Source: Candidatus Woesearchaeota archaeon
Lineage (GTDB): Archaea > Nanobdellota > Nanobdellia > Pacearchaeales > UBA284
Reading direction: 5' to 3'
Length of the DNA stretch: 24,000 nt
Assembly (NCBI GenBank): GCA_964354405.1
Contig: CAYGZP010000003.1
Coordinates: 8,666-32,665, forward strand
Made by a program: the position numbers and the translations under genes. Positions 1 to 15,328 of the stretch are shown here, in pieces (position 1 is the first letter of the stretch; the number at the start of each line of letters is the position of its first letter). Below the pieces are notes generated by a model, which did not search any database, was not told where the DNA came from, and saw nothing but the letters and a program-made list of their open reading frames with translations.

Positions 1-126
1 TCCAAGTTGCTTATCCAGTTCTTCTACTGTTTGCTGGTAGCGTTTAATCTGGTTTTTGTAATCCGCGATTTCTACTTCATGGGATTTCTTTGTAGCATCC
101 CGTTCGATTTGTTGCCATTTATTCAT
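1..126 (-). CDS. hypothetical protein, N-terminal 42 codons only (runs off the left edge)
   Basis: Hand translation of the minus strand from the ATG at 126-124 gives MNKWQQIERDATKKSHEVEIADYKNQIKRYQQTVEELDKQLG with no stop before position 1. Its start overlaps the stop of the upstream gene (TAATG). The charged, heptad-like sequence suggests a coiled coil. Confidence 0.4.
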   Translation of the reverse strand, partial: MNKWQQIERDATKKSHEVEIADYKNQIKRYQQTVEELDKQLG

Positions 127-350
127 TACGCTTCCTCCTCTTCAATTGTTTCTAATTCTCCTTCTTCAAAAATTTCTTGAGCATTGTCAATAATAGATTT
201 AACAGCATACTCATTCCCAAATTTTACTTCCATATGGTATGTTGTTCCCTGCTCCTCCCATGAAACGATTGCTATTCCGCAATCAAAATTTTCTGCTAAC
301 TGACTCCTAACTTCCATCAAAATATCGTTTTGTGTTTTTGGAGTTTTCAT
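126..350 (-). CDS. hypothetical small acidic protein (74 aa)
   Basis: ORF-track entry, co-oriented and tightly packed in the late operon. It has an acidic C-terminus (EEGELETIEEEEA). The ATG lies 3 nt downstream of a TTATCG-N4-CGATAA palindrome. Confidence 0.6.
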   Translation of the reverse strand: MKTPKTQNDILMEVRSQLAENFDCGIAIVSWEEQGTTYHMEVKFGNEYAVKSIIDNAQEIFEEGELETIEEEEA

Positions 351-353
351 ATT

Positions 354-369
354 TTATCGTTTACGATAA
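354..369. repeat. palindromic box TTATCGTTTACGATAA (copy 1)
   Basis: Perfect 6+6 inverted repeat with a 4-nt spacer. The minus-strand spacer TAAA contains the TAA stop (361-363) of the putative endolysin gene. The next ATG (350) follows 3 nt after the box. Confidence 0.9.
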
Positions 370-903
370 TTCGGTTAATAGATATGGAATTGTCTTTTGG
401 TTGTATCTATTCATTTCCGAATAGACGAGGTTGATGAATCCGTCCCATTGTGAAGGATAGATTGTTTGGCATCCTTCGCTTGAGGTGGATTTGTAACTGC
501 CCTTATGGATGTTGATAGCGATGCCCATATCGTCTCCAGTGCCGTCTCTCGTAACAGGCAACTCCTCTTTGGCGTTAGCAGGTCGCAACGCTGGATAGCC
601 ACCTCCGGGTTTGCTAATGCCATGATTCCCTTTACGAAAGCGATGAACGCCCGTTTTGAGAACCGCAATGCCTTTTCGATATACAGACGGATCAGTGTTG
701 GCGTTGAAAGTAGCATGAACAGAAGGAGATAGTAGTATAATCGCATCGTCGTAAATACCCCTATCATTCTTTCCTTTGACTCCCATTGAGTCAGCATAAT
801 ATCCGCGAATCCCTACCAGCGCAACACGATCTTCGATCCCCGCTTTGATGACCATTGCGAGGGTCTTTTCTTTCGCTTGCTGTGGTCTGGAGTTAGGAAC
901 CAT
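361..903 (-). CDS. putative endolysin / cell-wall hydrolase (180 aa)
   Basis: Last gene of a cassette of small membrane and lipoprotein genes with overlapping stops and starts. The segment INIHKGSYKSTSSEGCQTI resembles the His...Ser-x-Gly-Cys active-site pattern of YkuD / L,D-peptidase-like folds; this is from memory, with no search done. The function is inferred mostly from context. Confidence 0.6.
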   Translation of the reverse strand: MVPNSRPQQAKEKTLAMVIKAGIEDRVALVGIRGYYADSMGVKGKNDRGIYDDAIILLSPSVHATFNANTDPSVYRKGIAVLKTGVHRFRKGNHGISKPGGGYPALRPANAKEELPVTRDGTGDDMGIAINIHKGSYKSTSSEGCQTIYPSQWDGFINLVYSEMNRYNQKTIPYLLTELS

Positions 904-1073
904 TAGCCTTTACGCACAACATTGATGAGTCCAACGAGTCCGAGTCCTGCGACAAGGATTGCTTCTTGGAGTTCTGGTTCGATCTTCACTCCGACTGCCG
1001 TAGCAATAAGAATCAATCCGCGCCATGTGCTATTCTCTGATAGCCGCTGAAGTAGTATATTTACGATTTTCAT
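903..1073 (-). CDS. small membrane protein, 56 aa (holin/antiholin-like), not in the ORF track
   Basis: Hand translation gives MKIVNILLQRLSENSTWRGLILIATAVGVKIEPELQEAILVAGLGLVGLINVVRKG. It has two hydrophobic stretches. Its stop overlaps the endolysin start (TAATG) and its start overlaps the upstream stop (ATGA). Confidence 0.55.
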   Translation of the reverse strand: MKIVNILLQRLSENSTWRGLILIATAVGVKIEPELQEAILVAGLGLVGLINVVRKG

Positions 1074-1228
1074 TTTTTTGTTCCTTTTGGTTCGGGCAGT
1101 TCATAAGTAAGCCTGCCGTAATCTGTATCTAACGAAATTCCAAGTGTTGTGCAGCTTGTCAAGAATGCCATCGCAAGAAATGCGAATGAGATCAGAATCA
1201 TTCCAACTGCGATTTGTTTAGCGTTCAT
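1070..1228 (-). CDS. small lipoprotein, 52 aa (o-spanin-like), not in the ORF track
   Basis: Hand translation gives MNAKQIAVGMILISFAFLAMAFLTSCTTLGISLDTDYGRLTYELPEPKGTKK. It has a positively charged N-terminus, a hydrophobic core and a lipobox-like LTSC. The mature part would be only about 27 aa. It lies inside the lysis cassette. Confidence 0.6.
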   Translation of the reverse strand: MNAKQIAVGMILISFAFLAMAFLTSCTTLGISLDTDYGRLTYELPEPKGTKK

Positions 1229-1400
1229 TGTTGCGAATCTTTTTAAACATATACACTGCCGTCAAAATTCCAGCGATAAGAGAAACAAACAATCCACCGA
1301 GGCGCAATCCAGTTTCAATGTGCGGCATCATGCTTACCATGAATCCAGTAAAACTCGTTGTTGTTCCTAAAACTCCTGTAAGTGTAGCGTTATCGTTCAT
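1218..1400 (-). CDS. holin-like membrane protein (60 aa)
   Basis: Two predicted hydrophobic helices (SFTGFMVSMMPHI and LGGLFVSLIAGILTAVYMF) and a basic C-terminal tail (KKIRNNER). It is the first gene of the lysis cassette and overlaps the lipoprotein gene start by 11 nt. Confidence 0.6.
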   Translation of the reverse strand: MNDNATLTGVLGTTTSFTGFMVSMMPHIETGLRLGGLFVSLIAGILTAVYMFKKIRNNER

Positions 1401-1404
1401 CCGT

Positions 1405-1644
1405 TTATAATGTTATTGGTTCCCACTGTCTTTCAACTCGATCTTCAAACCAAACCACAATAGGCTCCCATTCGCCTTCTTCTGGTTTTTCTATTTTTAC
1501 CACTTCTACAAGACGAGGATCTTCCCATCCATCTGGAAGTGGGTATGGGCGAATCGTATCAATTCGCGGGTTACCTTCATCATCCAGCACTACACTTGCA
1601 AGTTCCCTTATTCCGTTTGGAAATATAAGTCCAAATGTTTTCAT
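1405..1644 (-). CDS. hypothetical protein (79 aa)
   Basis: ORF-track entry, co-oriented, with 3-4 nt gaps to both neighbours. No recognisable motif. Confidence 0.6.
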   Translation of the reverse strand: MKTFGLIFPNGIRELASVVLDDEGNPRIDTIRPYPLPDGWEDPRLVEVVKIEKPEEGEWEPIVVWFEDRVERQWEPITL

Positions 1645-1647
1645 AAA

Positions 1648-3687
1648 TTATGCTCCGTATGCTACCTCAACAACATCAACGCTTGCAACCCATCTCCAAG
1701 TTTCAGATAAAATTCCTGTAACTTGAACACTTAAAAAATCGCTTGCGTCATTTGCTGTAATGTTAATTGATGTTAGTGATGCTGTGTCTATTCCAATTGT
1801 ATTGACTGTTCCAACAAGCGTTGTAGTTGCGGCAACATTTTTAATTGAGAATTGACGAATATAACTTGCTGTTGCTGATCCATCGCTTTTAATTCCAGCA
1901 ATGTTAATTGTTCCTGTAAGGTATTTTCCAGATGGAATAGTTAGATATGTCGTTGCTCCATCAAGTGCCATTTCGACTGCTGTATTGGTAGTCGTCTTAC
2001 AGCGAAGGACGAAACGGGCGCGTTGGGCATCGCCTTGGGCGGAGAATTGACCTGCTGAATGCGCGTGCATTGCACGCCTATCAGAAAGTGAATTTGCTCC
2101 AAATGCGACACAAAGTGCATTAGATGATCTTGAATTTGAAGCTCCTAATACACTGGAGTTTGAACCAGATGCGGTTGAATTGTCAGAACTAAAAATACCA
2201 GAATTTGACCCAGAAGAAATATTGGATTGACCTCCAATTACTGTTGAATAAGAACCTTGAGCTTGTCCATTAAATCCTCCAACTGATACCGAAGCCGAGC
2301 TGGTCGCAGACATTTGTTGACCCATAGCTACACAGGCAAAATTACTTGCTAAACAAGATGTCCCCCCTGCAACTGAATAACTTCCAGAAGCAGTATTATT
2401 TGAACCAGCTAAAATTACCGCATTTAACCCGCTTGAAACTTGAGTCGCAGCAAATCTTTGTAATTGCAAATCAACGGCATAGTTTCCCCTCGCATTCCCC
2501 CCAGTCGTCGTGCCATCCGGCTTCGGGCCTGCGATCAGTGCCCCCATGCCTTTCGGCGTGAGGACGAGATCAGAATTTGTAGCGGTGGTGTTCTCTGATA
2601 GAGTGACATTCGTGCTGACGCTATGCCCATTTACAAGTGTTCCTACTGTAATGTCCGTTGTAAAAAGTGAAGCTCCACCGCCAACGCTTGTGCTGACTTG
2701 GAATGTCGCTCCGCTGACATTGATAACATAGTAGTTTGTCGTTGTATTAAGACCCGATCCGCCAGTCAATGCGGTAAATCGAACTGGTTGACCATTTGCA
2801 AAGGCAGAACCTGTTGCCGTAATAATGTCAGTTGAAGCAACTCCAGTTATTGCAAATGATTCAATGGCATCTTCAACAATAAGACCAGAATTTTGCAATG
2901 TGCTTCCACCCGTGCCGTCTGCACGAAGGATGGCGTTGTCAACTGATCCAGTTGTAATTGTTGTAGGTGTTGTCCATGTAGGGGTTCCTGCGCCAGCAGA
3001 GGTTAAAACTTGACCCACAGTTCCAATAGGAGTTACGCCTAATGCTGAAGTGCTGGCACCATAAGCAATTCCACCAGCAACAAACGCTGAGGACTGACCC
3101 GTGCCGCCTCGATTATAGGCAACAGTATTTCCATTCCATGTAGCAGAAGTAATTGAACCCGGATAATCAAATGTATTGGTTGACCACGATACATTTGATG
3201 GAGATTGATCGTGTCTATCCCAAGAGCCTGCTGCCGTTGCATTATCAAGCAAAACAACTGTGACATATCCACCAGATGGAATAGATACTATAAGCGTATT
3301 TGAGTTGTTATTAACTAAAATTGCACCAGAACTTTGATTGTTGTTGAAACTAAAAATTGTGCCTTTTGTAAGCGTAGTTGCGTCTGGTAATTTGATTGTT
3401 TGTCCACCAGACCCAGTGACAAGCGAAACTGGTGCGGATGCAACGGTTAAAACAACTTGAGTTCCAGATGCAGTAATTGTTGCGAGGTTATTGAAAAACG
3501 CATTTGCTGAGATGTTATTGTTAGCGTCTTTTACAACTACTGTGCTATCAATGGCGATTGTTCCAGAGGTAGTAATTGTTCCACCAGTTAATCCTGTTCC
3601 TGCGGTTATGCTGGTGACTGTTCCGGCACCTCCACCACCACCTGCAATATCAAGTTTTCCTGTGAATGGATTGAATTTGTATGCCAT
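1648..3687 (-). CDS. tail fibre protein (679 aa)
   Basis: The N-terminal MAYKFNPFTGKLDI motif is one I recall at the N-termini of many phage tail fibres. The composition is Gly/Ser/Thr/Asn/Ala-rich and beta-repeat-like. The C-terminal half carries repeats of the form GxxNxASGSxSxxxGG, like YadA/Hep_Hag head repeats. Confidence 0.8.
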   Translation of the reverse strand: MAYKFNPFTGKLDIAGGGGGAGTVTSITAGTGLTGGTITTSGTIAIDSTVVVKDANNNISANAFFNNLATITASGTQVVLTVASAPVSLVTGSGGQTIKLPDATTLTKGTIFSFNNNQSSGAILVNNNSNTLIVSIPSGGYVTVVLLDNATAAGSWDRHDQSPSNVSWSTNTFDYPGSITSATWNGNTVAYNRGGTGQSSAFVAGGIAYGASTSALGVTPIGTVGQVLTSAGAGTPTWTTPTTITTGSVDNAILRADGTGGSTLQNSGLIVEDAIESFAITGVASTDIITATGSAFANGQPVRFTALTGGSGLNTTTNYYVINVSGATFQVSTSVGGGASLFTTDITVGTLVNGHSVSTNVTLSENTTATNSDLVLTPKGMGALIAGPKPDGTTTGGNARGNYAVDLQLQRFAATQVSSGLNAVILAGSNNTASGSYSVAGGTSCLASNFACVAMGQQMSATSSASVSVGGFNGQAQGSYSTVIGGQSNISSGSNSGIFSSDNSTASGSNSSVLGASNSRSSNALCVAFGANSLSDRRAMHAHSAGQFSAQGDAQRARFVLRCKTTTNTAVEMALDGATTYLTIPSGKYLTGTINIAGIKSDGSATASYIRQFSIKNVAATTTLVGTVNTIGIDTASLTSINITANDASDFLSVQVTGILSETWRWVASVDVVEVAYGA

Positions 3688-3688
3688 A

Positions 3689-3955
3689 CTATGGGTAAGT
3701 TATTGTTACTTTTACCAAATTTGTGTCGTTTACTGTTGGAGGCTGAGTAGCATACTCAAGTGTTAGTGTTGCTACTAAGACTCCTGCATTTTTGTATAGA
3801 ACAGTCGCAATATTATTTGTGGCACCATAGTAAGTGATGTCAATCTCGTCATATGGCGGGATGTCGAATCCAGTAACTTGTTTCAATTGCTCATAGATAT
3901 TGAAATTCTGTTGATCTGGAGTTAGATTGATAAAGCAGGGTTGAGAGAGTGCCAT
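3689..3955 (-). CDS. hypothetical structural-module protein (88 aa)
   Basis: ORF-track entry. Its stop lies 1 nt from the tail fibre start, and its ATG lies 6 nt downstream of palindromic box copy 2. Confidence 0.6.
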   Translation of the reverse strand: MALSQPCFINLTPDQQNFNIYEQLKQVTGFDIPPYDEIDITYYGATNNIATVLYKNAGVLVATLTLEYATQPPTVNDTNLVKVTITYP

Positions 3956-3961
3956 AATATT

Positions 3962-3977
3962 TTATCGGTTACGATAA
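3962..3977. repeat. palindromic box TTATCGGTTACGATAA (copy 2)
   Basis: Perfect half-sites. The box directly abuts the TAA stop (3978-3980) of the upstream minus-strand gene. Confidence 0.9.
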
Positions 3978-4244
3978 TTAGCCAACTGGTGGAAGAGCAG
4001 CAGCAAGAGCTTCGTTAGTAAGGAAGTATTGCTGGTCTTCAGTTTTTTGCACAAAGCAATTTTGAGTAACTGGGGTGAGGCTACCAATGGTTGCGAGTCC
4101 GAAATAGAATTGATAGAGTTTAGCGGAATCGGAGGCTGAGTCATAGCATCCATAAGAAATTGGGTTAATACCAGCAGCATCAGCAATCGTTTGAAGAAAA
4201 GGATAGGATTTATTGCGGTAGTCGAGATCGGTAAAGCAAGCCAT
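3978..4244 (-). CDS. hypothetical structural-module protein (88 aa)
   Basis: ORF-track entry. I prefer it over the overlapping 3962..4330 ORF, which would overlap the upstream 204-aa gene (4302..4916) by 29 nt. Confidence 0.55.
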   Translation of the reverse strand: MACFTDLDYRNKSYPFLQTIADAAGINPISYGCYDSASDSAKLYQFYFGLATIGSLTPVTQNCFVQKTEDQQYFLTNEALAAALPPVG

Positions 4245-4249
4245 AATTT

Positions 4250-4290
4250 AAAAAAGGGGTTAGGGTGAGGAAGGATTACCTTCCCCACCC
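4250..4290 (-). terminator. GC-rich hairpin plus T-run after the 204-aa gene (candidate leaky intrinsic terminator)
   Basis: The minus strand reads GGGTGGGGAAGG-TAAT-CCTTCCTCACCC, a 12-bp stem with one G-U pair. It is followed by TAACCCCTTTTTT. The T-run is offset by 7 nt, so terminator strength is uncertain. Confidence 0.5.
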
Positions 4291-4301
4291 AAGGTTGAGG
4301 T

Positions 4302-4916
4302 TTAGTAGTAGATGCCAACAACGTAGGCATTCACATAGAGTGCGCCAACACGTCCAGCAGTATCAGCACCAGAGGTGACATTCACGCCAGCGTTTGCGTA
4401 GGTGAAGGTGGTCGAGTCAACGACAGTAACTTCAGCCTGCACATCGTTGAACGTAGTGTCGGTCATGCTGGCAATCGTGATCGTGTCACCCGTGGCAAAA
4501 CCATGAGCAGCACCAGTAACGATTGTGGCAACGCCCGAAGTGCGGGAACGAGTTGCGGTAGCTTGACCAGCACCAACAGTAGATTTCAACAAACGAAGTT
4601 TGCGGGAACCAGTGATAACATAAGGATTGGCGGCAATCGCAAGAGGATTGTAGCGGCCTTGGTTATCAAGAGCGTCAGTGATGGTGAGCGAAGAGGTGAT
4701 GTTTTCGCCAGTGGTTCCGTTGTCAACGATCACAATTGGATCGGTGGCAGTAGTTCCGCGAGCGTAGGCAGTCTCCAGCACGATGCTTGTTGGAAAGAAC
4801 TTAGTGTCTTGGTCGTTAAGAACCAAGAGGTCAGCGTCTCCAGCAGCGAGGAGGTTAACGGCAATCGGGCCAAACAAGTTGACACGATCATAAGCGAGTG
4901 GTCGAGAATTAGACAT
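4302..4916 (-). CDS. virion structural protein (204 aa), function unassigned
   Basis: Immediately downstream of the putative capsid gene with similar strong codon bias. The segment GAAHGFATGDTITIASMTDTTFNDVQAEVTVVDSTTFTY resembles a beta-domain motif seen in phage structural and fibre proteins (from memory). Confidence 0.65.
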   Translation of the reverse strand: MSNSRPLAYDRVNLFGPIAVNLLAAGDADLLVLNDQDTKFFPTSIVLETAYARGTTATDPIVIVDNGTTGENITSSLTITDALDNQGRYNPLAIAANPYVITGSRKLRLLKSTVGAGQATATRSRTSGVATIVTGAAHGFATGDTITIASMTDTTFNDVQAEVTVVDSTTFTYANAGVNVTSGADTAGRVGALYVNAYVVGIYY

Positions 4917-4935
4917 ATATTTTATTTAAGGTTGT

Positions 4936-4963
4936 GGGGAGAGGCTTGAATAAGCCTCCCCCC
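4936..4963 (-). promoter_or_regulatory. intercistronic GC-rich hairpin after the capsid gene
   Basis: The plus strand reads GGGGAGAGGCTT-GAAT-AAGCCTCCCCCC, with one A/C mismatch in the stem. No U-run follows on the minus strand, so an mRNA-stabilising or processing hairpin is more likely than a terminator. Confidence 0.45.
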
Positions 4964-4971
4964 TGTTTAAC

Positions 4972-6384
4972 TTAGGAAGGCACAACGATGTCACCCACAC
5001 CAGCGCAGCTATAGCAATCCTGATTGTTCTCAGGAACGATGTAGCTTTGCACAGGGCAGCAGGAACCATAGAGGTTTTTGCTTTGTGGCAGGCGATGCAA
5101 GAACGAGTGCATGATGGTTGGGTCTTTGACCTGTGCAGCGAGACGGAACTGGGCTTGATAGAAGCCCGTTTTGCGCCAGCGGTTGCACTCCCAATCTGGG
5201 TTCTTCCATTCCCAATCGCCAGCGTAGTTCTGGGTCATTTGCTGGGCTTGGCCGTATCCGGTCGGGGATGGCATTGTCCATTTAACCATTGCTTTGTTCA
5301 CCATAGCAACCGAGATGCCGAAGTCGGCAGTGCGGTATGCGCGGTTAGGAATATAAGCGCAACCGTTTTCAAGGACAGTCTTGATGTAACGAGGAACGCG
5401 AACGAGACGTGCCCATGTAGCAGGATCAGCTTCATTGAATGTAGCGAGCGATGCGTTGAAGGCGGTGTCAGCGTTGAAGCGAGCGGAGTTGATGTCGTAT
5501 CCGAAGGCATAGTCACCGATGATGCGGTTGATGCCGAGTTTCAAACGAGTAAGACGCTCATCGAAGTCGGTGTTTGCATCCCAGTAACCATTGTTACGCT
5601 TGGCTTGGAAGTAAAGCGCACGGCCAACTTGAGGATCAGGGATAACGATGTCGAGCAATGGCTGACCAGTCGCATCTTGCAGATCAAGGCGGAAAGCGTC
5701 ATCTTCGTCTTGGAGGTCAACGAGAGCGTCGTCGAGCATATCAAGCGAGAGATAAGCAATCTTATTGAGGTCGGCAGGAGCGAGCTTAACGCGAATCGCG
5801 CAGAGGTCGTAGCCAGCTTCGTTGTTGATGGTATGCTCAGGAACGAACCATGCAGAGTCGTCAACGAGTCCGCAGTAAGTGCCGTCATCCGTGGTGATAC
5901 CCATCCATTTGTGGCCGGAACCACCGATGTAGTTGGAACGAAGGAACTCTTCGTGGACGTTCTTGGTGATGCGAGCATTCGACTCCTCGAACTGAAGGAT
6001 TTCTTCAGCAGGGAAGAGGCGATAAAGAAGGCTCTCAACGCAAATCCAGTCAGTCGTCATCTCTTTACGGAGAAGCTCGAAAGTGTAGCTCTCAGTGCCG
6101 GGGCGCTGAATAACTTCAGGTTTGCTATCGCAAGAATCAGTCTCGCAGTAGGTGTCGGTGATCGCACGGAAAGGAGTGCAAGGATCGTGGAAGCCACGGC
6201 CAAAGCGGAATGCTTTCTGTTCGGTTGTATGATTCAAGGGCCATGATTGCTCCTCGAAACGTGTGAAATATGCAGAGTTGGTGACGAGTTTCTTTACATA
6301 GAGGTCGTTGAAATACTCGCGGCCCTCGCGGAAGAAACTATCAATCTCAGCACAGGAATTGAAATATAGCTGATCTGATGCCAT
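4972..6384 (-). CDS. putative major capsid protein (470 aa)
   Basis: Gene order is portal, small ORF, scaffold, then this gene. It shows the strongest codon bias in the window: there are no TTA, CTA or TCA codons across about 400 codons, which is why the codon-aligned antisense frame stays open. It has a long structured leader and is bracketed by hairpins. No sequence motif was recognised. Confidence 0.65.
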   Translation of the reverse strand: MASDQLYFNSCAEIDSFFREGREYFNDLYVKKLVTNSAYFTRFEEQSWPLNHTTEQKAFRFGRGFHDPCTPFRAITDTYCETDSCDSKPEVIQRPGTESYTFELLRKEMTTDWICVESLLYRLFPAEEILQFEESNARITKNVHEEFLRSNYIGGSGHKWMGITTDDGTYCGLVDDSAWFVPEHTINNEAGYDLCAIRVKLAPADLNKIAYLSLDMLDDALVDLQDEDDAFRLDLQDATGQPLLDIVIPDPQVGRALYFQAKRNNGYWDANTDFDERLTRLKLGINRIIGDYAFGYDINSARFNADTAFNASLATFNEADPATWARLVRVPRYIKTVLENGCAYIPNRAYRTADFGISVAMVNKAMVKWTMPSPTGYGQAQQMTQNYAGDWEWKNPDWECNRWRKTGFYQAQFRLAAQVKDPTIMHSFLHRLPQSKNLYGSCCPVQSYIVPENNQDCYSCAGVGDIVVPS

Positions 6385-6583
6385 AATGATTGGTTTTGTT
6401 TGATTTTAGTTGGTTTGGTTTTAGTTTGATTCACAAACGCAAAAGGCCCGAAAGCCCCAAGCGAATGCTTGTTGGTTTCGAGCCGGAGTTCAACCCTCGG
6501 TGTCTTTTGCAAGACCAGTCCGGAAACAGATTTTCATGCGAGTTCTGATACTCGCCAGCCAGAGTGCGGCTGAATCACTAATT

Positions 6584-6599
6584 TTATCGTAAACGATAA
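6584..6599. repeat. palindromic box TTATCGTAAACGATAA (copy 3)
   Basis: Perfect half-sites in the capsid gene leader. It lies about 15-30 nt downstream of the predicted TSS and about 200 nt upstream of the ATG. Confidence 0.9.
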
Positions 6600-6621
6600 T
6601 TTCGTCTTTCTCTTACATCGG

Positions 6622-6650
6622 ACATTGCAACAGACTATTTACAGTGTCAA
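6622..6650 (-). promoter_or_regulatory. candidate sigma70-like promoter for the capsid operon
   Basis: The minus strand has TTGACA (6650-6645), a 17-nt spacer and CAATGT (6627-6622). The -35 is perfect and the -10 is weak. It sits directly downstream of the scaffold terminator. Confidence 0.3.
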
Positions 6651-6655
6651 GCAAC

Positions 6656-6701
6656 TTTTTTCAAAAAAGTTTGGGGGAGGTAGCGCGATTCTACCTCCCC
6701 C
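6656..6701 (-). terminator. intrinsic terminator after the scaffold gene (bidirectional-looking)
   Basis: The minus strand reads GGGGGAGGTAG-AATCGCG-CTACCTCCCCC, a perfect 11-bp stem, followed by AAACTTTTTTG. A T6 run is also present on the other side of the stem. Confidence 0.6.
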
Positions 6702-6730
6702 ATCTATGAACCAGATTTCAGAATGACGGG

Positions 6731-8014
6731 CTATGCAGTCCTTCCTTGCGGCGAAAACCTTGATAGTTTCGCGGCCAGTCCCTCACTGATACTCATTCTT
6801 GGTTTCTGGGAATCCGATGCACTTGGCGATGAGGAGATGCGCGACGATCCTTTCAGTTGTGCGATATACTCGTCTTTCTCTTTCACCATCTCTTGGTATG
6901 CCTTGAGTTGTGCTTGAATCTTCTGATAGGCGCGGCCTTGGTGGATCAGTCGGTTCATGTCTTCAACTGATGCCTGCTCGTTTGTTTGCTGTGTTGCTGC
7001 CAGTGCAATGGCCTCGTCGCGGGAGATGTCGAACTTGATTCCCTTTTCCTTCATGTAGTCAGCAACCACATCTGGAATTTCGGTAGCCCGATCAATCTCC
7101 TGTTGAGTATTTTTGTATCCTTCACGCCACTGGTTCAGATACTTGTTCCTGCCTTCTTGCTCTTTTTGTTTAGCGGTTTGAATGATATTCTGCTTGGTTT
7201 CTTCAAAGTTGACAAGAGCAGCGTGATGTCCTTGAGTTGCTTTGATGAAGCTGTTGACTTGCTCAGCGAATTGATACTGCTTGAATTGCGAGAGTGAGTT
7301 CGTGATTTCCTCGAACGCTTGGTCGCGGTCGGCTTCTGCCGCTCTACGATCCTCTTCGGAGGACGCATTGAAGATGGAGGCATTTGCATTGACAGCACGG
7401 GAGAATGTCGAAAGAAGAGTTGGATCATTCGATAGCAATTGTCGCGCAGTGTCGTAGGTATTCTTGATAGGATCGAGGTAAGTTTTTTTGAAGTCTGGAT
7501 TGCTCGTAATATCGTGGAAGTCCAGCTTACCCCGGAGTTCCTTGATCTGCTCTGATAGTTGTTGCTCAACGTCCAGCTTCTCTTGGTTGGCTTTGTTGAG
7601 TTGTTCTTGGTAGTGGTTGGCTTCTTTAGTCGATGTTGACTCGGAGACCATTCGCTCAAGTTCTTGGATTTTGGTTTCAAACTTGGGGATTTCATCTTTC
7701 TTGTATTTCTCAAGTTCTTCTTTGAGTTTGCGGTTCTCTTCGATTTGCCGCTCAACGAATCCTTTTTTCTTTCCTGTGCGGTCAGACGTGATTTCAGCTT
7801 CGGTAACTCCCGTGTGTTCTTCTGGTGGTTCTTCTTCATTGAATTTTTTAATGCCGAGATTGGGATCACCAATATTGGTAGCACTTGGCTTGCCTTCGTC
7901 GGATTGTTGTTGGCTGAACTTCTTGAGGAAGTCAGATGTGTTACCTTTAATCGGAACTTGAGGTTTAGCCTTCAGTTCTTTGATTACTTCTGCTGTGTCG
8001 TTTGGGTCTGCCAT
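6731..8014 (-). CDS. putative scaffolding protein (427 aa)
   Basis: Lies between the portal and capsid genes. It is highly charged and E/K/Q-rich with long heptad-like stretches (for example KKDEIPKFETKIQELERMVSE and EKLDVEQQLSEQIKELRGKLD), which is typical of scaffolds. Confidence 0.65.
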   Translation of the reverse strand: MADPNDTAEVIKELKAKPQVPIKGNTSDFLKKFSQQQSDEGKPSATNIGDPNLGIKKFNEEEPPEEHTGVTEAEITSDRTGKKKGFVERQIEENRKLKEELEKYKKDEIPKFETKIQELERMVSESTSTKEANHYQEQLNKANQEKLDVEQQLSEQIKELRGKLDFHDITSNPDFKKTYLDPIKNTYDTARQLLSNDPTLLSTFSRAVNANASIFNASSEEDRRAAEADRDQAFEEITNSLSQFKQYQFAEQVNSFIKATQGHHAALVNFEETKQNIIQTAKQKEQEGRNKYLNQWREGYKNTQQEIDRATEIPDVVADYMKEKGIKFDISRDEAIALAATQQTNEQASVEDMNRLIHQGRAYQKIQAQLKAYQEMVKEKDEYIAQLKGSSRISSSPSASDSQKPRMSISEGLAAKLSRFSPQGRTA

Positions 8015-8017
8015 AAA

Positions 8018-8263
8018 TTAGATTTCGTCGAGGTCTGGGTCGATTGTGATGTCCGCTGGTTCTTTATGTTTTCCAGCAACTTTTGTTTTTTTGAATGCTC
8101 CCTGCTCCTCAGTTCCAATAGCTTCAATAGTTTTGATTGCATGGATAAGCGTGGTTACTCCTTCTGGTGGGTTTACATTAAGTAGTAAATACGCCTGTAG
8201 TTTGTTCCAGTCTTCGTGTGAGGTTATTGCCGCGCATAGGGATTTTACTTTTTCTGTTGTCAT
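8018..8263 (-). CDS. hypothetical protein (81 aa)
   Basis: ORF-track entry. Its start overlaps the portal gene stop (8260-8263), and its own stop is 3 nt from the scaffold start. Confidence 0.6.
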   Translation of the reverse strand: MTTEKVKSLCAAITSHEDWNKLQAYLLLNVNPPEGVTTLIHAIKTIEAIGTEEQGAFKKTKVAGKHKEPADITIDPDLDEI

Positions 8264-10740
8264 GTTTGTGTTGGTGTTTCTTCCATCTCAACTTCTTCGG
8301 TAGCTTCTGGAGTTTCGACTTCTTCAGTCTCTTCTTCCTCTGGCTCTTCTTCCATCTCTGGAGCTTCCATCTCCGGTTGCTCTGCCTTCATCTTACCTTT
8401 AGTTTTCTGAATCTCAGCACGGGCTTTAGCCTTCTGAAGCGCGAGTTGGGTGATGCCCTGTTCCTTGCGCTGCTCAGTGCGTTGAGCGTGTGAGATAGAA
8501 GCCTTGCCAATCGAGATGTCAGCGAGCTTCTTCTTGGTATCAATCTCAATACCAGATTTAGCAGCGAGGTATTGGAGTTTGATGTCTTCTTCGGAGTTTG
8601 GTTGACCAGATTTTTGAGCTTCAGCTTCTGCCATCTGAACATACACTTGCTGGAGTTCGTCGGCCATTCCTTGAGCTTCGTTCATACCTTGCATGAATTG
8701 TTTCAAGAAGTCCTGCTTCGATGGGTCTTTGCTGATATACTCAACGTGCGCCATGATATGACCACCCTTGAACTTGATAGCACGGACTGCTTTCGAGATT
8801 TCGGCAAACTCTGGATTACCTTGCTGAACGGATTGCAGGTTCATCTGCAACTGCATTGCCAAGTCTTGGAAGTGACCTTGAGCGTGTTCGATGTGCGGAT
8901 CAGTTGGCAGCACAGGGAAGTTTGCAGGGTTGACGAACGCATCAGTCATACCAGCATTCTCAAATCCAATGATACGGGCAGTATCGTCGATCTTGCTTGG
9001 CTTAGTATTCCGATAGCGAGCTACGTTATCTCGGCCCGATAGTGCGGCGATTGCATCCTTAACTGCATTCTCCTGCCCTTCGTTTGCTGGAGTGATTGCT
9101 GTAATCTGCAATAGTTTTTCTGCTGTGATGAGTTTGAACGATGGGCTACCTGCTCCATTGATGAGGTTGGAGCGGATGCTTGTGATGTTCTTCCATTGTG
9201 CGGCTTCTTTTGGAGTGCCAAGTTCTTCAAGAATCTCGTAGAACTTCTTCACATACTCGTATCCATCATCGCTGGATTTGGAGCTTACGAAGCGTTTGTA
9301 GAGTTGTTTGAAGTAAAGAGTTTGGCACTCATTGAATCGACGAATCTGAGTTCCAGATAGTTTAGCTGACTCGGCGGCATCCAGTTCTGCTTCGCCTTTT
9401 GTCCTCTGCTTTCCTCCAGCGGTAGGTGCGTTGATACGATACTGCCCCATGCCCCTATACATATCTCCCATGAAGAACTGCATGAAGCTCATGCTTTCTG
9501 CTACTGGAAGTTGGAAGCGGTTCTGGATGAACTTTGCCCCATCTGGCATTACGCTAATAGGCAACCATTCCATCTGCTTCAGCATCTTGGTTGCGTCTGG
9601 CCCTTGTCCTTCGATCATCAACATGGAGTTGAGTCGAACAGCATCAACCAGCGAGTTCATTGTGAAGTCATACTGGCGGCAGGCAACGAACGCCGATTCC
9701 GCTTGGCTCTTGATGTCTTGGAAGAGTCCGCTACCAACTGAGTCGGTGAGCATATACATGATCTCATCCCATGAGTCGAAAAGTCCAATCTTGAGCATCA
9801 TAAACCCGTGTTGGGTTCTGATGTCATCTTCGCTGATCTTGCCAGCACCCTTGATGTTGGAGTTGATATAGTCGGAGATTGGTTGGTAGTCTTGAAGGAT
9901 AATCGCCTTGCTGATTTTGCCATCGAACTCTCTCCAGTAGACTTCGTAGAGGTCGATCTTTTGGTTTACCGATAGTGACCAGTTGAATCCAGATTCGCTG
10001 ATCGTGCGGAAGAAGTCTTCACGGGTCTTGCGGTGGTTGCTGAATGCGCGGTGGAATCTGATAGCATCAATTGCTGCGTCCACATTCCATCCCATTGCTT
10101 CTGCTGCTGCACGATTCTCAATCTTCTTGTAGAGTTCGTATGGAGTCAAACGGACACGGCGAACAAACTCCTCAAGGTTGCAGAAGTCGATCCTAATGTC
10201 GTCTGGAAATAGAAGGTCGGAGAGGAAGACGTGTTCTGGCATCCATCCCATTGGTGAATCCCACATACCGATGCCTTTTCCATACAACAGCATTTCCTCA
10301 AGGTCTTGCTCTGTATTGTAGAGGTATCCGGGCCATTCTCGGATTGCTTGGTCGAATGCAATGGAAATGTTTTCGGAGTTAACGAGTCGTTCTTTTTCAT
10401 TTCCAAATTTGCTCTTGATCGTGCAACAAGCCTGCCGCTCGGTGATTACATCGTAGTAACTGGACTTCTGGTTATCAACAATGAATGCAAGTTGTCCGTA
10501 GTTCACATCCGATTGCCAAGGAAGTCGCTTCTCCGCGAGCTTGCTATAACCAGTAGGCGGGAATGATTTATAGGCTTTAAAAATACGTATACGTTTGTTC
10601 TCGCGTCCGATGTTAGCAAGTCGAAGATGATTTGCTATGTTCCAGCAATGCGAGGCATTGGAGATTCGTGTTTCCGGTGGTTTACCATTTTCATCAAGTG
10701 TAGCTAAACTGAAATTATCGGAGCCGATGCTTAAAGACAT
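8260..10740 (-). CDS. putative portal protein (826 aa)
   Basis: It is the largest head-module ORF, immediately upstream of the scaffold and capsid genes and near the terminase. The C-terminal tail is extremely acidic (EMEAPEMEEEPEEEETEEVETPEATEEVEMEETPTQT). The assignment is by size and synteny only. Confidence 0.6.
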   Translation of the reverse strand: MSLSIGSDNFSLATLDENGKPPETRISNASHCWNIANHLRLANIGRENKRIRIFKAYKSFPPTGYSKLAEKRLPWQSDVNYGQLAFIVDNQKSSYYDVITERQACCTIKSKFGNEKERLVNSENISIAFDQAIREWPGYLYNTEQDLEEMLLYGKGIGMWDSPMGWMPEHVFLSDLLFPDDIRIDFCNLEEFVRRVRLTPYELYKKIENRAAAEAMGWNVDAAIDAIRFHRAFSNHRKTREDFFRTISESGFNWSLSVNQKIDLYEVYWREFDGKISKAIILQDYQPISDYINSNIKGAGKISEDDIRTQHGFMMLKIGLFDSWDEIMYMLTDSVGSGLFQDIKSQAESAFVACRQYDFTMNSLVDAVRLNSMLMIEGQGPDATKMLKQMEWLPISVMPDGAKFIQNRFQLPVAESMSFMQFFMGDMYRGMGQYRINAPTAGGKQRTKGEAELDAAESAKLSGTQIRRFNECQTLYFKQLYKRFVSSKSSDDGYEYVKKFYEILEELGTPKEAAQWKNITSIRSNLINGAGSPSFKLITAEKLLQITAITPANEGQENAVKDAIAALSGRDNVARYRNTKPSKIDDTARIIGFENAGMTDAFVNPANFPVLPTDPHIEHAQGHFQDLAMQLQMNLQSVQQGNPEFAEISKAVRAIKFKGGHIMAHVEYISKDPSKQDFLKQFMQGMNEAQGMADELQQVYVQMAEAEAQKSGQPNSEEDIKLQYLAAKSGIEIDTKKKLADISIGKASISHAQRTEQRKEQGITQLALQKAKARAEIQKTKGKMKAEQPEMEAPEMEEEPEEEETEEVETPEATEEVEMEETPTQT

Positions 10741-10743
10741 ATA

Positions 10744-11418
10744 TTAAATAAGTTGAAGTTCTTCCCACCTCAGTGAGTTTTTTGAATTTTTTTTAAGGTT
10801 TAGTTTTGCTGGCAATACCTGTAAATTTGAAGGTATATGCAATCCTCCCTTTGAAATTGGAATTACATGGTCAACATGAAACTGAATTCCAAATCTTTTT
10901 TCAAGTCTTATTCTTTGCAAGTATATTGTTTCAATAATCAGTTTTTGATTATGCGTCAAATCTGGTGTGTTGTTTTTTTTGGTGGCTCTACGTTTCGCGC
11001 TTCCTTTTCTTAAAAGTAATTTATATCTTTCCGGATTTTCCTTTTTCCAATTTTTAAAATTTTCTTTAGCTTTTACTGAATTTAATTTATTCCACTCCCT
11101 TGAATTTTGCCGATGTTTTTCTGGATTTTTTTTCTTTTGCTCCCGATCTCTTTTTCTAAAAAGATCAATATTGTTTAAACGAGCAATTTTTGTTTTAGCG
11201 AGTTTTTTTAGTCTGTTTTTAGAATACCATTCTCTTTCATATCCCCTACGAGAATTTAAATTTTCATTCCTATTTTTTGTAGACCATTCATTTTGAGATT
11301 TTTTAAGTTCGCAAAATTTTTCTTCAGTAACCCAATATCCTTTTTTGCGAATCAATGCCCAGAAAACCATGCCATCCTCTCGGACATCCCCGCGCTTATA
11401 TTTGATGATGGTTTCCAT
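10744..11418 (-). CDS. HNH endonuclease (224 aa)
   Basis: C-terminal HNH motif FHVDHVIPISKGGLHIPSNLQVLPAKLNLKKN (the DH..P..GG.H..N..N pattern). The N-terminal half is basic and repetitive (W..KNR, RKR, KKN). It is adjacent to the portal and terminase, as packaging-associated HNH proteins are. Confidence 0.8.
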   Translation of the reverse strand: METIIKYKRGDVREDGMVFWALIRKKGYWVTEEKFCELKKSQNEWSTKNRNENLNSRRGYEREWYSKNRLKKLAKTKIARLNNIDLFRKRDREQKKKNPEKHRQNSREWNKLNSVKAKENFKNWKKENPERYKLLLRKGSAKRRATKKNNTPDLTHNQKLIIETIYLQRIRLEKRFGIQFHVDHVIPISKGGLHIPSNLQVLPAKLNLKKNSKNSLRWEELQLI

Positions 11419-11420
11419 TT

Positions 11421-11436
11421 TTATCGTTTACGATAA
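11421..11436. repeat. palindromic box TTATCGTTTACGATAA (copy 4, identical 16-mer to copy 1)
   Basis: Perfect half-sites. The minus-strand spacer TAAA contains the TAA stop (11428-11430) of the 125-aa gene. The HNH gene ATG (11418) follows 2 nt after the box. Confidence 0.9.
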
Positions 11437-11805
11437 TTTATTCAAAGCGTTTCTTCGCTTGTTACATGAAGAACATCCGCGAGCTTTATGCTCAAGTTTA
11501 GTTCCTAAAACCTTATCGGTAGCCGCTGCTACAGTGTGGATAGCTTGGGCAATACGATCCCCAAGTCCATCAGCATACCAGCAACGATCACTTGGTTGAC
11601 GCTGGCAGATTTGATCTTCAACCATTTGCTCAATGTTACTTGGCAGTTCAACTCCGTTTGAGCGATAATCCTTTTGGATATTCTGCATCAAGCTACTCCA
11701 TGTGCTTCCGTAAACAATAGCAGGGAATGTGAGTTTATCACGCTTGATCTCATACTTCCAGTAAAAGCCACCGACTGGAGCGAGGTTTTTGTTTTTCAGT
11801 TTCAT
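11428..11805 (-). CDS. hypothetical protein (125 aa), first gene of the leftward late cluster
   Basis: ORF-track entry. It has a C-terminal Cys pair (GCSSCNKRRNALN). No assignable function. Confidence 0.55.
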   Translation of the reverse strand: MKLKNKNLAPVGGFYWKYEIKRDKLTFPAIVYGSTWSSLMQNIQKDYRSNGVELPSNIEQMVEDQICQRQPSDRCWYADGLGDRIAQAIHTVAAATDKVLGTKLEHKARGCSSCNKRRNALNKLS

Positions 11806-11841
11806 CTTGCCTTTCGACGGAAAATATATTTTCTTATTGAT

Positions 11842-13692
11842 ATGTCAAGAGTTTTTTCTTCCAACAAGGGTATTCAGAAATATGGGATGAAGTTCCCAGA
11901 AAACATGGACGAACTTGGAATAGAACTTTATTGCTATGCAATTTCCCGTGGAGAATATGGAAAAGAATACTGCGTTAAGCACAATATTAACCTAACAGAT
12001 TTTAAATTACTCTCTCCATCTGAACATTTCCTTAATGCTGTGAAACTTCAATGGCCGACTGAGGTTTCTATCTACAGTCGAGGATATACGAATACTCAGT
12101 TGGTTAGGACACTGGATGAGTTATGTTCCAATACTGACATCTGTTTAGCAGGCGCGGCTTCGATGGGTAAGTCATTTCCAGTTGCACTTTGGATTTATCT
12201 TGATTGGTGTTCTGCCCCACACTGCACTTCTTCTTGGGTTGCTACAACTACTCTGGGTGCATCTGAAGATCGTATCTGGGGTATCATTTCTAAACTTTGG
12301 AAGTCTGCCAGTGTTCAGTATGGTAAGTTGATCGACTATAGACACATGATTGTTTGGGGAGGCGCATCCAACGACGAAGATAAAGATTATCGTAATGCGA
12401 TAAAAGCTCTCGCTTTTCAGTCTGGTAACGAAGGTCAGAAGGCTATTGATACTACCCGTGGTCGTAAGAATGATCGTGTTCGATTGGCACTTGATGAGTT
12501 GCCCGAAATGGAGTTAGGAGCAATCACTGCTCGCGTTAACCTTTCTGCAAATAACGATATTACATTTATAGGTATCGGAAACCCGTCAGCAGGCGACAAC
12601 CCTCACACTCGTTGGGCAATGCCTAAAGGTCATTCCAACTTCGATTCTGTCAATCCAGACATGATGAAGTGGGATACGGAAACTGGCGTTTGCTTATTCT
12701 ACAACGGCATGAAGTCTCCTAACTTCGCTGCGCCTGCCCATGAACCATCTCCATTTCCGTTTCTGATGGATCGCAAGAAGCAGGAAATAATGCTCAAACA
12801 ATGTTACGGCGATGAAAATGCTATTGACTATGTTCGTAATGCTATCGGTTGGTGGCCGAAAACGGGATTTGCTCAAACTATTCTCACTGCTGATCTCATT
12901 CGTAACGCCGATACGAACGAAGAACCACTTTGGGATTCTGAAGGATTTACTAAGGTAGCAGGATTCGATACCGCATTTACAGTTGGTGGTGATAGATGCG
13001 TTCTGACTATCGCCAAACTTGGGTATGTGCGAGGGACTCGCAATCGTGTTATGTGGCTTGAGAGTCAAAAGGTAATTCAACTATCTGCTAACGCCGCTGC
13101 TGAGTTTGAAATCCAACTGGCTAACGAAGTTGTTGCTTTATGTCGTGCTGCTGGAGTGCAACCATCTAAATTCGGTATGGACGTGTCTGGTGATGGTGGC
13201 CGAGTTGGACAGGCTATTATTCGTGAGTGGCTACGTTTTGATTCCTCTGGAGCCGCAATCGCTCTTATCTCATCTATGGGTAAACCTACTGACCGAATCG
13301 CGGCAGAGGTTGATAAACGCCCGTGTAAGGATGTTTACGATAGGTTGGTATCTGAGTATTACTACTCATGCTATCACGCATTCAAGAGTCGAGTTATTTA
13401 TGGCATTGATCCCGCTTCCGATTTGGCGCGGGAACTTTGCCTTCGCCGATACACGATTAAATCTAAGAAGATCGCCATTGAAACTAAAGATGAGTTGAAG
13501 GGTAGGACTGGTTACTCTCCCGATTTGAGTGACAGCTTGATCTACGCACTCGAAATGGCGCGGCGTAATGGACTCGTATTTATCGGAAACGATAAACCAG
13601 TTCCAACTAACCGATTCTGGGCGCGGGATGAGGTATCAATTGATACCACTCAAGACGATGACTACGGATCAGACGATAACGGAGATTGGTAA
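11842..13692 (+). CDS. terL: terminase large subunit (616 aa from the ATG at 11842)
   Basis: Walker A-like LAGAASMGKS. Walker B-like RVRLALDELPE. RNaseH-like nuclease motifs GFDTAFTVGGDRCV and SPDLSDSLIYALEMA near the C-terminus. The track ORF begins at 11674, but that extension overlaps the divergent 125-aa gene, so I chose the internal ATG at 11842 (MSRVFSS...). Confidence 0.85.
   Translation: MSRVFSSNKGIQKYGMKFPENMDELGIELYCYAISRGEYGKEYCVKHNINLTDFKLLSPSEHFLNAVKLQWPTEVSIYSRGYTNTQLVRTLDELCSNTDICLAGAASMGKSFPVALWIYLDWCSAPHCTSSWVATTTLGASEDRIWGIISKLWKSASVQYGKLIDYRHMIVWGGASNDEDKDYRNAIKALAFQSGNEGQKAIDTTRGRKNDRVRLALDELPEMELGAITARVNLSANNDITFIGIGNPSAGDNPHTRWAMPKGHSNFDSVNPDMMKWDTETGVCLFYNGMKSPNFAAPAHEPSPFPFLMDRKKQEIMLKQCYGDENAIDYVRNAIGWWPKTGFAQTILTADLIRNADTNEEPLWDSEGFTKVAGFDTAFTVGGDRCVLTIAKLGYVRGTRNRVMWLESQKVIQLSANAAAEFEIQLANEVVALCRAAGVQPSKFGMDVSGDGGRVGQAIIREWLRFDSSGAAIALISSMGKPTDRIAAEVDKRPCKDVYDRLVSEYYYSCYHAFKSRVIYGIDPASDLARELCLRRYTIKSKKIAIETKDELKGRTGYSPDLSDSLIYALEMARRNGLVFIGNDKPVPTNRFWARDEVSIDTTQDDDYGSDDNGDW
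13580..13595. repeat. palindromic box TTATCGGAAACGATAA (copy 5, inside terL)
   Basis: Perfect half-sites. It encodes FIGNDK about 100 nt before the terL stop. The 16-mer is identical to copy 8 in the helicase gene but is read in a different frame. Confidence 0.9.
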
Positions 13693-13847: not shown

Positions 13848-13860
13848 GGCCGGGTTAACT
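13848..13860. repeat. 13-bp direct repeat GGCCGGGTTAACT (left copy)
   Basis: Exact match to 14415-14427. It overlaps the stop codon (13855-13857) of the HNH-AP2 gene. Confidence 0.9.
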
Positions 13861-14346
13861 GGTAAATGCGTCACGAAAAGCCATTGCGTCCGTGAGATGC
13901 CTACGATGCGTGTATTTTCGTTGCCCATTACGCTGGACTTGGACTTTCCACCACACTCCCGATTTTCTTGGTATCGTAACTTGTCGAATATTAACCATTT
14001 TGTGGTCGCACCTTTCGGAGTTGATGCAGTTTTCCGATACGGTAGCAATGCGTAAATTTTGTATGCGATTGTCGATTTTTACGCGATTGATGTGATCAAG
14101 AATTCCGTTTGGCCATTCTCCATAAAATAAAACCCATGCTACTCTATGGGCTAACATTTTTTGTCGAACGCCATTATGAAATAATGTTATGGATAAATAT
14201 CCGTGGCCATCACTTGTTCCTGCTGGTTGACCAACTCCTTTTGATGTTGGAACTCCGTTTGATCGAACAGACCCAGCAATCCGAGTGATGATTCCAGTTG
14301 TTGGATTGTAAGAAAAATATTGTCGAATAATTTCAGGTGAGTGCAT
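13855..14346 (-). mobile_element. free-standing HNH-AP2 homing endonuclease gene (163 aa)
   Basis: GYLSITLFHNGVRQKMLAHRVAWVLFYGEWPNGILDHINRVKIDNRIQNLRIATVSENCINS is the classic HNH_3 homing-endonuclease pattern (HR..w...G......DHIN....DNR..NLR). The C-terminal VWWKVQVQRNGQRKYTHRRHLTDAMAFRDAF is AP2-like. It is flanked by 13-bp direct repeats in an otherwise non-coding gap. Confidence 0.8.
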
Positions 14347-14635: not shown

Positions 14636-14863
14636 TCAATCCAGAATACCTTCAAGTTCCAAGGTATTTGCTACTTCTTCTGGCACTACTATACGAATCA
14701 TTTTCTCCCCGTCAAGAAAACCAAGGGTTTCTTTAACGCGAATATCGCTTTTCCTTACCCAACATTGGTTGAATTTCTGAACAAACAGAATTTTTGTTGG
14801 GTTCTCACTTACTTCAATTCCCTCGCAGATTATGCGGGATTCAAACGTGTTACTTGTAGTCAT
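14636..14863 (-). CDS. hypothetical early protein (75 aa)
   Basis: ORF-track entry and last gene of the leftward early operon. Its start overlaps the upstream nuclease gene by 14 nt. Confidence 0.55.
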   Translation of the reverse strand: MTTSNTFESRIICEGIEVSENPTKILFVQKFNQCWVRKSDIRVKETLGFLDGEKMIRIVVPEEVANTLELEGILD

Positions 14864-15149: not shown

Positions 15150-15328
15150 TTGTAGTAGTCTGTTAGCTGTTGAAGTCCGAGCGTGGCCAATTCCAGTTCT
15201 TCGTAAATTTCTCTGACTGACTCTGGGAAGGGTTTGCCTCGCTGGTGCATGGTGGTTGGACTGCCTGCTGAGTATGGACTGACTCTGAGGTAGTATTTAC
15301 CTTCTTGGATTTCGAGGAAGACGTGCAT
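15104..15328 (-). CDS. hypothetical protein (74 aa); overlaps both neighbours
   Basis: ORF-track entry with globular-looking sequence (VREIYEELELATLGLQQLTDYY). It overlaps the 3' 166 nt of the HTH ORF and the 5' 46 nt of the nuclease ORF. No SD is visible, so its coding status is uncertain. Confidence 0.35.
   Translation of the reverse strand: MHVFLEIQEGKYYLRVSPYSAGSPTTMHQRGKPFPESVREIYEELELATLGLQQLTDYYKCSVEKKVSKKRVAS

Follow-up and report, generated by a model that had tools for sequence, protein, structure and literature searches.

The conserved inverted repeats (CIRs) of Streptomyces phage phiC31, reportedly described by Ingham et al. 1994, are said to be bound by the phage repressor. Here we compare these repeats and other described sites with a 16-bp palindrome, TTATCG-N4-CGATAA (hereafter the box), which recurs in the window, by which we mean the whole 24,000-nucleotide stretch that was analyzed (contig CAYGZP010000003.1, positions 8,666 to 32,665); this stretch is part of a phage genome. 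Like the box, the CIRs are conserved palindromes of 16–17 bp that are present in many, mostly intergenic copies genome-wide. One CIR lies in the region controlling the repressor gene itself, a position that is occupied by a box in four related lineages but not in the window. The two systems differ in sequence and host group. Furthermore, phiC31 is proven to be temperate and repressor binding to its CIRs has been demonstrated, whereas here we infer binding and saw no integrase in the annotated stretches of relatives. Several copies of the box, unlike the CIRs, are embedded in stop codons or coding sequence.

The stoperators of mycobacteriophage L5 and other cluster A phages, which are sites of the gp71 repressor, number in the tens, lie in short intergenic spaces near gene ends and have been proposed to halt transcription elongation at cistron boundaries (PMC9283540, PMC6550527). 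They are asymmetric sites of 13–14 bp that are bound by a monomer and oriented with transcription, whereas the box is a palindrome without orientation. Being palindromic, and with a spacer use that is symmetric to the sense strand, the box falls outside the strict definition of an L5-type stoperator. T1-like phages (T1, TLS and Stevie) carry 16–21 copies of an intergenic repeat of 21–22 bp in a genome of ~50 kb; the function of these repeats is unexplained, and the authors liken them to stoperators (PMC4319613, PMC11447400). Unlike the box, the T1-like repeats are asymmetric, oriented with transcription and free of stop overlap, and in TLS they lie ~76 nt upstream of starts.

Operators of XRE/CI repressors of the 434, P22 C2 and lambda type resemble the box in that they are palindromes of 14–18 bp with an uncontacted central spacer. 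These operators overlap the −10/+1 region of an early promoter beside a divergent helix-turn-helix repressor gene, and the box is predicted to do so in four related lineages. Classical switches have 2–3 clustered operators only, whereas here the switch contains one box at most, that of the window having none, and ~14 more are distributed genome-wide.

A recurrent palindrome in the window

Eight perfect copies of the box are present in the window (354–369, 3962–3977, 6584–6599, 11421–11436, 13580–13595, 16002–16017, 17521–17536 and 18723–18738, numbered 1 to 8 below; copy 1 reads TTATCGTTTACGATAA). Copy 9 (23134–23149, GTATCGTTAACGATAA) has a single mismatch, which changes its first half-site to GTATCG, and a two-mismatch copy at 10715 is probably due to chance. 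When up to two mismatches were allowed, the search returned 10 matches in the window where 0.76 were expected; 100 shuffles never yielded as many as 10. Non-coding DNA makes up 7.6% of the window, and six of the nine boxes lie at least partly within it (binomial p ~1e-5). The box is composed of two 6-bp half-sites and a 4-bp spacer, with the half-site centers 10 bp or about one helical turn apart, and as a strict palindrome it has no orientation.

On balance, we consider it probable that the box is a double-stranded DNA site for a symmetric dimer of a phage regulator, most likely the XRE/CI-like protein encoded at 15163–15570. Neither an Rfam family nor a tRNA was found, whether in the window or among the structured elements of relatives, and a literature search with the motif string returned primer noise only. 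Scanning 185,579 species genomes for TTATCGTWWACGATAA gave, among the matches listed, scattered single ones in unrelated taxa and therefore no sign of a host regulon.

Conservation of the box in related phages

Relatives were collected as viral contigs found with the capsid, DnaB and tail proteins (217, 115 and 270 confirmed matches, respectively), and the best 80 loci of each were used. A total of 427 dereplicated box contexts were examined, 275 of which are intergenic, and 234 of the latter have an upstream open reading frame (ORF). The box recurs in more than 270 related viral contigs and is present at every one of the 80 capsid loci. A genome of ~55 kb carries ~15–16 boxes, about a third of them inside long genes. 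At syntenic sites, the twelve half-site bases are fixed while the spacer and flanks vary, and in 59 of 60 one-mismatch variants the outermost base is the sole site changed.

The spacer is 4 nt long in roughly 900 occurrences and 5 nt long at a single conserved site. This site (e.g., in the context AATGCGAGAGCTTTTATCGCATTACGATAATCTTTATCC), with 44 occurrences spread over 25 contexts, is the one spacing variant that recurs. In close relatives, the spacer follows K-W-W-M in all 227 dereplicated boxes, a rule that stays the same on reverse complementation. Each half of the spacer takes T or G independently of the other (112 TT, 104 mixed and 11 GG, versus ~118, 91 and 18 expected), and positions 7 and 10 therefore do not covary like a base pair. 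Nor was there any bias in spacer orientation relative to the sense strand after the stop-using TAA cases had been set aside. Spacers are freer than K-W-W-M in divergent lineages. The invariant half-sites, the fixed 4-bp spacer and the symmetric constraint on the spacer fit the anatomy predicted for a dimer site. One divergent relative (L253:3300-11400) has 15 boxes in 12.8 kb, several of them 40–300 bp apart and some with spacers outside K-W-W-M.

Copies 5 and 8 lie inside ORFs. Copy 8, inside dnaB, codes for L-S-E-T-I, for which 864 synonymous spellings are possible; TTA TCG GAA ACG ATA was found in 44 of 45 haplotypes, and the adjacent Leu codon drifts. One lineage whose DnaB is 56% identical retains the half-sites and has a changed spacer, with an apparent amino-acid change that was read by eye from the untranslated sequence. 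Copy 5 lies inside the large-terminase ORF (terL) in the frame F-I-G-N-D-K, and its half-sites are invariant in 42 relatives while neighboring codons vary. Judged from these patterns, the dnaB and terL boxes are held by selection at the nucleotide level.

Copy 9 starts directly after the TGA stop of the Zn-ribbon gene and lies within the first codons of the glycosyltransferase gene. In the window (23130–23149), the latter starts ATGA, overlapping the Zn-ribbon stop, and the box accounts for six extra codons (M-SIVNDK-FRFHVL). A subgroup of relatives (L153-L165) has a glycosyltransferase that begins M-RFHIL, without the box and its six codons. The box in this gene thus looks like a discrete in-frame gain of 18 nt.

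An apparent insertion of this kind would speak for another role at the DNA level, with the box as a recombination boundary, a small mobile palindrome or the target of an HNH nuclease or methyltransferase. The same holds for the genes flanking boxes, which differ between relatives, and for an HNH gene that is inserted beside box 4 in the window but not in the relative L169. However, the sites are syntenic and stable over hundreds of contigs rather than polymorphic, they lack target-site duplications, and the placement of boxes at promoters or in the switch would be unexpected of such an element. We regard these roles as very unlikely, and a DNA operator remains our preferred explanation.

Stop and start codons at the box

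An earlier note on this DNA had claimed that the boxes sit on stop codons and replace Shine-Dalgarno (SD) sequences at gene junctions. Its reading of the stop geometry was confirmed. On the minus strand, the genes at 361–903 (180 aa) and 11428–11805 (125 aa) finish with TTA TCG TAA within copies 1 and 4, giving proteins that end in TELS and NKLS, respectively. Copies 2, 6 and 7 begin on the first base after a stop (GGC TAA, GGC TAA and ATT TGA). For copy 2, this was checked on the minus strand, where the abutting TAA is at 3980–3978; copy 6 follows the 124-aa first early gene, and copy 7 follows the replication-initiator gene, with the ATG of the methyltransferase gene 25 nt downstream. Copy 9 shares this arrangement. 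The downstream starts 2, 3 and 6 nt past copies 4, 1 and 2 (ATG at 11418, which opens an HNH gene, and at 350 and 3955), all without an SD sequence, were likewise as the note had described them.

The comparison with related phages, in which a random phase of the box relative to stops was to speak against the note, showed that the stop-in-box phase is kept. Measured from the box start, stops in the 234 intergenic contexts that have an upstream ORF end at 0 nt in 75 cases, at +9 in 77, at +16 in 21 and at +10 in 3, while positions −1 to −3 together account for 10. When contexts were grouped by unrelated upstream flanks, ~17–19 of the 29 resulting independent families of junctions had the stop pattern. 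The TAA that abuts copy 2 is present in 58 of 58 spanning relatives, despite differing codons before it. The abutment of boxes to stop codons is real, conserved and non-random.

This abutment is explained more simply by the stop triplets of the box itself and the extreme compactness of the genome. One frame through the box always ends with CGA TAA, whichever strand is read, a second ends only if the spacer begins with TAA, and the third is open; the third frame is read through as F-I-G-N-D-K in terL and as S-I-V-N-D-K in the glycosyltransferase gene. The stop positions seen (0, +9, +10 and +16) are exactly those that the box sequence permits. Because the genome is extremely compact, a 16-bp element between two genes touches the stop and takes the place of the ribosome-binding site. 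Even at same-strand junctions without a box, the gap is at most 4 nt in 24 of 30 cases, and the median is a 4-nt overlap. As for the box standing in place of an SD sequence, the starts in question do lack one, but there is nothing special in this: an SD is recognizable in 9–12 of the 39 window genes, with almost none among the structural genes, and is missing from the other 27–30. With TAA at both ends of the palindrome, a frequent TAA spacer and a single frame passing through, the stop geometry would be a by-product of the box, and genes would stop flush with it or borrow its triplets.

RNA-level interpretations

The same note had suggested an intercistronic device, either a hairpin melted by the terminating ribosome for reinitiation or a protein-controlled gate at cistron boundaries. 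As a translational device, the box would form an RNA hairpin at the junction that is melted for reinitiation or bound by a protein to block an SD-less start, and would thus serve as a global translational operator. T4 RegA and the MS2 coat protein are precedents for translational operators. The geometry is in line with such a device, given that the stop lies in or flush with the box in the junction families counted above and that 21 of 37 downstream families have the start codon −1 to 12 nt past the end of the box. Further arguments come from the switch of four lineages, in which the box overlaps a start codon, and from a subclass of boxes in relatives that is embedded in covarying RNA hairpins favoring the sense strand.

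The hairpin formed by the box itself is weak, however, with a stem of 6 bp and a folding energy of −3.8 to −6.7 kcal/mol. Its core stem is invariant and without compensatory change, while its loop is variable and symmetrically constrained; typical RNA operators show the reverse pattern. Loops have no sense-strand preference, a test of G-U versus A-C asymmetry found no sense-strand bias, and extended palindromic flanks are not above chance overall. In addition, conserved copies lie deep in dnaB and terL and one is 200 nt from the capsid start, and most genes do without an SD and are closely coupled with no box needed. Reinitiation through a melted hairpin is not supported in view of the weak invariant stem, the intragenic copies and the SD-less, near-zero gaps that also occur without a box, and we hold a translational device to be unlikely. 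The gate fared differently in its two forms. Control of transcription read-through comes close to the reading that is best supported here, while the translational form agrees poorly with the data.

RNase III sites between T7 early genes are the model for a processing or stability element, in which the box hairpin would mark cut or protected ends of polycistronic transcripts. The intercistronic position of boxes directly after stops, their frequent location just before a new promoter and the long two-hairpin composite elements of relatives are consistent with this idea. Yet RNase III needs a stem longer than 6 bp, canonical GC-rich terminators are present where the genome needs them, cuts in dnaB, terL and tail genes would do harm, and there is no Rfam match, all of which makes an element of this kind highly improbable. 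RNA-level functions of the box, taken together, appear fairly unlikely to us.

Two further identities were rejected. A Rho-independent terminator does not agree with two G-C pairs in 6 bp and no sense-strand T run, and the terminator scan listed no box. A leaderless or T4-late-type promoter was dismissed on account of a −10 position that is unfit for copies 1 and 4 and of 3' flanks that vary in relatives.

Promoter context and the genetic switch

Consensus scans for sigma70 promoters and for terminators remained at chance level overall in the window. Copy 3 is situated within the 346-nt region upstream of the major-capsid-like gene, downstream of a minus-strand array at 6622–6702 that comprises a canonical terminator (6702–6672), an A-tract, TTGACA (6650–6645) and a predicted −10 (6627–6622). 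This capsid promoter is of the sigma70 type and conserved; its TTGACA is invariant, and a spacing of 17 bp leads to the −10-like hexamer. Box 3 lies at about +17 to +32 from its predicted start and ~200 nt from the capsid start. The leader of the capsid-like gene (6385–6730) is itself conserved and structured over ~230 nt, and its second hairpin covaries (CAGCC...GGCTG, CAGTC...GACTG and AGGC...GCCT).

In relatives, box 6 is directly followed, after 9–10 nt, by AAAAGATGC-TTGACA-N17-TAGTTT, an element that resembles a promoter and belongs to the replication module. The window carries this element on the plus strand at 16086–16100 (AAAAGATGCTTGACA), separated from box 6 by a 68-nt insertion (16018–16085) that most relatives lack and that contains a perfect TATAAT (16025–16030). 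Boxes were further found 9–20 nt upstream of an A-tract and TTGAC(A/T) in at least eight unrelated contexts.

The genetic switch of the window (15596–15624, plus strand) has back-to-back −35 hexamers, TTGACAAGTCAA (15596–15607), and a rightward −10, TACTAT (15619–15624). The two −35 hexamers make up a 16-bp palindrome of their own, TATTGAC-AA-GTCAA(C/T)A (TATTGACAAGTCAATA). In the adjoining region (15560–15640), the likely start of the XRE gene (MKHPL, 15570) is ~8 nt past a predicted −10, which suggests a leaderless XRE mRNA, as for lambda cI.

In four divergent lineages, reached via distant XRE homologs, a box is part of the switch that separates the XRE gene from the divergently transcribed early gene. 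The order there is early gene start, box, 11–13 nt, TTGAC(C/T)TGTCAA, 23–27 nt and XRE ATG, and the box overlaps both the predicted −10/+1 of the early promoter and the early gene start codon. By analogy, this is the classical position of a repressor operator.

Boxes at sigma70-type promoters, namely those of the switch in related lineages, the capsid gene and the replication module, would act as ordinary operators. The remaining boxes occupy free bases between packed genes or tolerant spots in long genes. Going by the closest precedents, namely the phiC31 CIRs, the L5 stoperators and the T1-like repeats, a protein sitting on these scattered boxes could form a roadblock to read-through transcription, or silence it, where transcription units meet, like the L5 stoperators.

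Candidate binding proteins

The best candidate for the binder is the XRE/CI-like helix-turn-helix protein (15163–15570, minus strand). Across 66 distinct sequences, there is hardly any change in its N-terminal 84 residues, whereas the C-terminal half varies, and the recognition helix GVTGSLINQIE is kept in homologs down to 38% identity. At E values below 1e-3, the family profile matched two solved helix-turn-helix chains, one named DBP48 (4e-5) and the other an unnamed 'Transcriptional regulator' (6e-4); its matches to SinR, P22 C2 and 434 repressor/Cro were weak, at E 0.05–0.9.

The NrdR-box consensus is acaCwAtATaTwGtgt, which occurs in pairs 15–16 bp apart upstream of nrd genes. Cellular NrdR binds 16-bp palindromes in which each half-site takes up a single Zn-ribbon, and the smallest NrdR unit is a dimer linked by the Zn-ribbons (PMC12051234). 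The box is a palindrome of the same length and the phage encodes an NrdR-type Zn-ribbon protein of 84 aa (22879–23133, plus strand), although one that lacks the ATP-cone of NrdR; a dimer of this protein, rather than XRE, could bind the box as DNA. The protein matches PF22811 and NrdR structures and its ribbon is nearly invariant in the main group, and a box lies directly 3' of its gene.

This second, weaker candidate is challenged by a subgroup that has a very different ribbon protein of 68 aa, with other residues in the DNA-facing motifs, yet identical boxes, none of which adjoins the ribbon gene. In lineage L377, an unrelated 182-aa gene occupies the syntenic place of the Zn-ribbon gene. The structure model of the Zn-ribbon protein was of low confidence (predicted local distance difference test 65) and its fold search uninformative. 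No covariation of a Zn-ribbon variant with a different palindrome was found, the distant homologs being on contigs that are too short or in the same family. Binding by the Zn-ribbon protein seems improbable. Comparing the two, we favor XRE as the cognate binder of the box from the sequence evidence.

The identity of the box as an NrdR box was rejected: its sequence is unlike the consensus, the boxes are single instead of paired at 15–16 bp, and no nrd (ribonucleotide reductase) genes are present alongside them. As for the ribbon proteins themselves, NrdR-type Zn-ribbons without an ATP-cone occur in two very different forms in one phage family, the 84-aa form and the 68-aa form, the latter with a short C-terminal helix (L153:12398, L154:13174 and others).

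Observations that weigh against an XRE-bound operator

Several observations weigh against the box being an operator for XRE. The switch of the window is without a box, the nearest being ~400 bp away, and for this reason the link to XRE is drawn from related lineages and from conservation. Distances between boxes and promoters vary and are not fixed, and many boxes lie 1–7 nt ahead of start codons, as would be the case for a translational operator. The lack of an integrase in the annotated stretches makes lysogenic silencing uncertain, and the role of the box may be temporal control in the lytic cycle rather than prophage silencing. Finally, a subclass of boxes in relatives, with none in the window, caps a hairpin of 13–16 bp that has G-U pairs and compensatory changes.

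Boxes of this subclass are part of a composite intercistronic element (L096:20581-20660, L103:20791, L120:13266, L121:16974, L160:12566 and 13165, and L253:8614). It consists of (T)AGCCACTCTG, the box-capped hairpin, CAGCAG, a second hairpin of 7–9 bp, AAAACACGAAAC and ATG, in this order. Folding energies are −29 to −32 kcal/mol (z −6.4 to −7.3) for the sense strand, compared with −21 kcal/mol (z −1.6) for the antisense strand, and no Rfam match to the element was found. By its covariation and folding, the composite element is a genuine RNA structure built around the box, and this too counts in favor of RNA structure and against a pure DNA operator.

The box may conceivably work at two levels, as a DNA operator of the CI-like regulator and as a protein-bound RNA hairpin, wedged between a stop codon and a start without an SD, that gates downstream translation or decay; we give this combination a low probability. 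If it were true, it would amount to a genome-wide translational operator in a phage largely without SD sequences, with the composite hairpins as its strongest RNA version.

Should binding by XRE be true, the box would be a palindromic, dimer-type counterpart of stoperators outside the actinobacteriophages. A single 16-bp word at ~15 regulatory points per genome offers a handle on the gene-expression program of this phage family, and the motif can serve as a simple marker for recognizing its members. The box also illustrates how a regulatory word with built-in stop triplets may become welded to gene ends and be mistaken for a translational signal.

The phage genome around the box

The phage family comprises hundreds of IMG/VR contigs and is abundant in freshwater metagenomes, with no cultured relative. 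Against 50,697 cultured phage records, the window gave no nucleotide match and its terminase and capsid proteins no match, and DnaB matched at below 30% identity only. No prophage copy of the capsid gene was found in the 185,579 species genomes, and scans with PHROG and Pfam left most structural genes without an assigned function.

Minus-strand genes span positions 1 to 11805 and encode, among others, the capsid-like protein (4972–6384), an 826-aa protein and an HNH nuclease. The large terminase is on the plus strand and extends to 13692. A rightward early operon starts at 15633 and encodes the replication initiator, a C5 methyltransferase, DnaB, RusA, the NrdR-like Zn-ribbon protein and the glycosyltransferase. 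At 11806–11882, the large terminase and the structural operon diverge. The first gene of this operon (125 aa, with a Cys-rich C-terminus) has no known family; a promoter-like TTGACA-16-TATTTT is located at 11848–11821. Following the stop of the capsid-like gene is a GC-rich hairpin without a T run (4917–4971).

The HNH / endonuclease VII gene next to box 4 (10744–11418) is inserted between this box and a portal-like gene. In L169, which is without this gene, the portal-like ATG lies 12 nt after the box. Further HNH genes are located at 13855–14346 and 14850–15149.

An N-terminal PTPETDA motif is common to at least three small genes that lie next to one another (starts 20636, 21336 and 21554) and is extended to MSERPTPETDA in two of them. 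All four genes of the region 20636–21817 have a strong AAGGAGG/GGAGGAG Shine-Dalgarno sequence, unlike most genes of the window. In some relatives, the ResIII/helicase gene (L088:11626-14298 and L089:10265-12937) shows a weak Pfam match to intein splicing and encodes 890 aa, compared with ~540 aa elsewhere, which suggests an intein insertion polymorphism in this gene.

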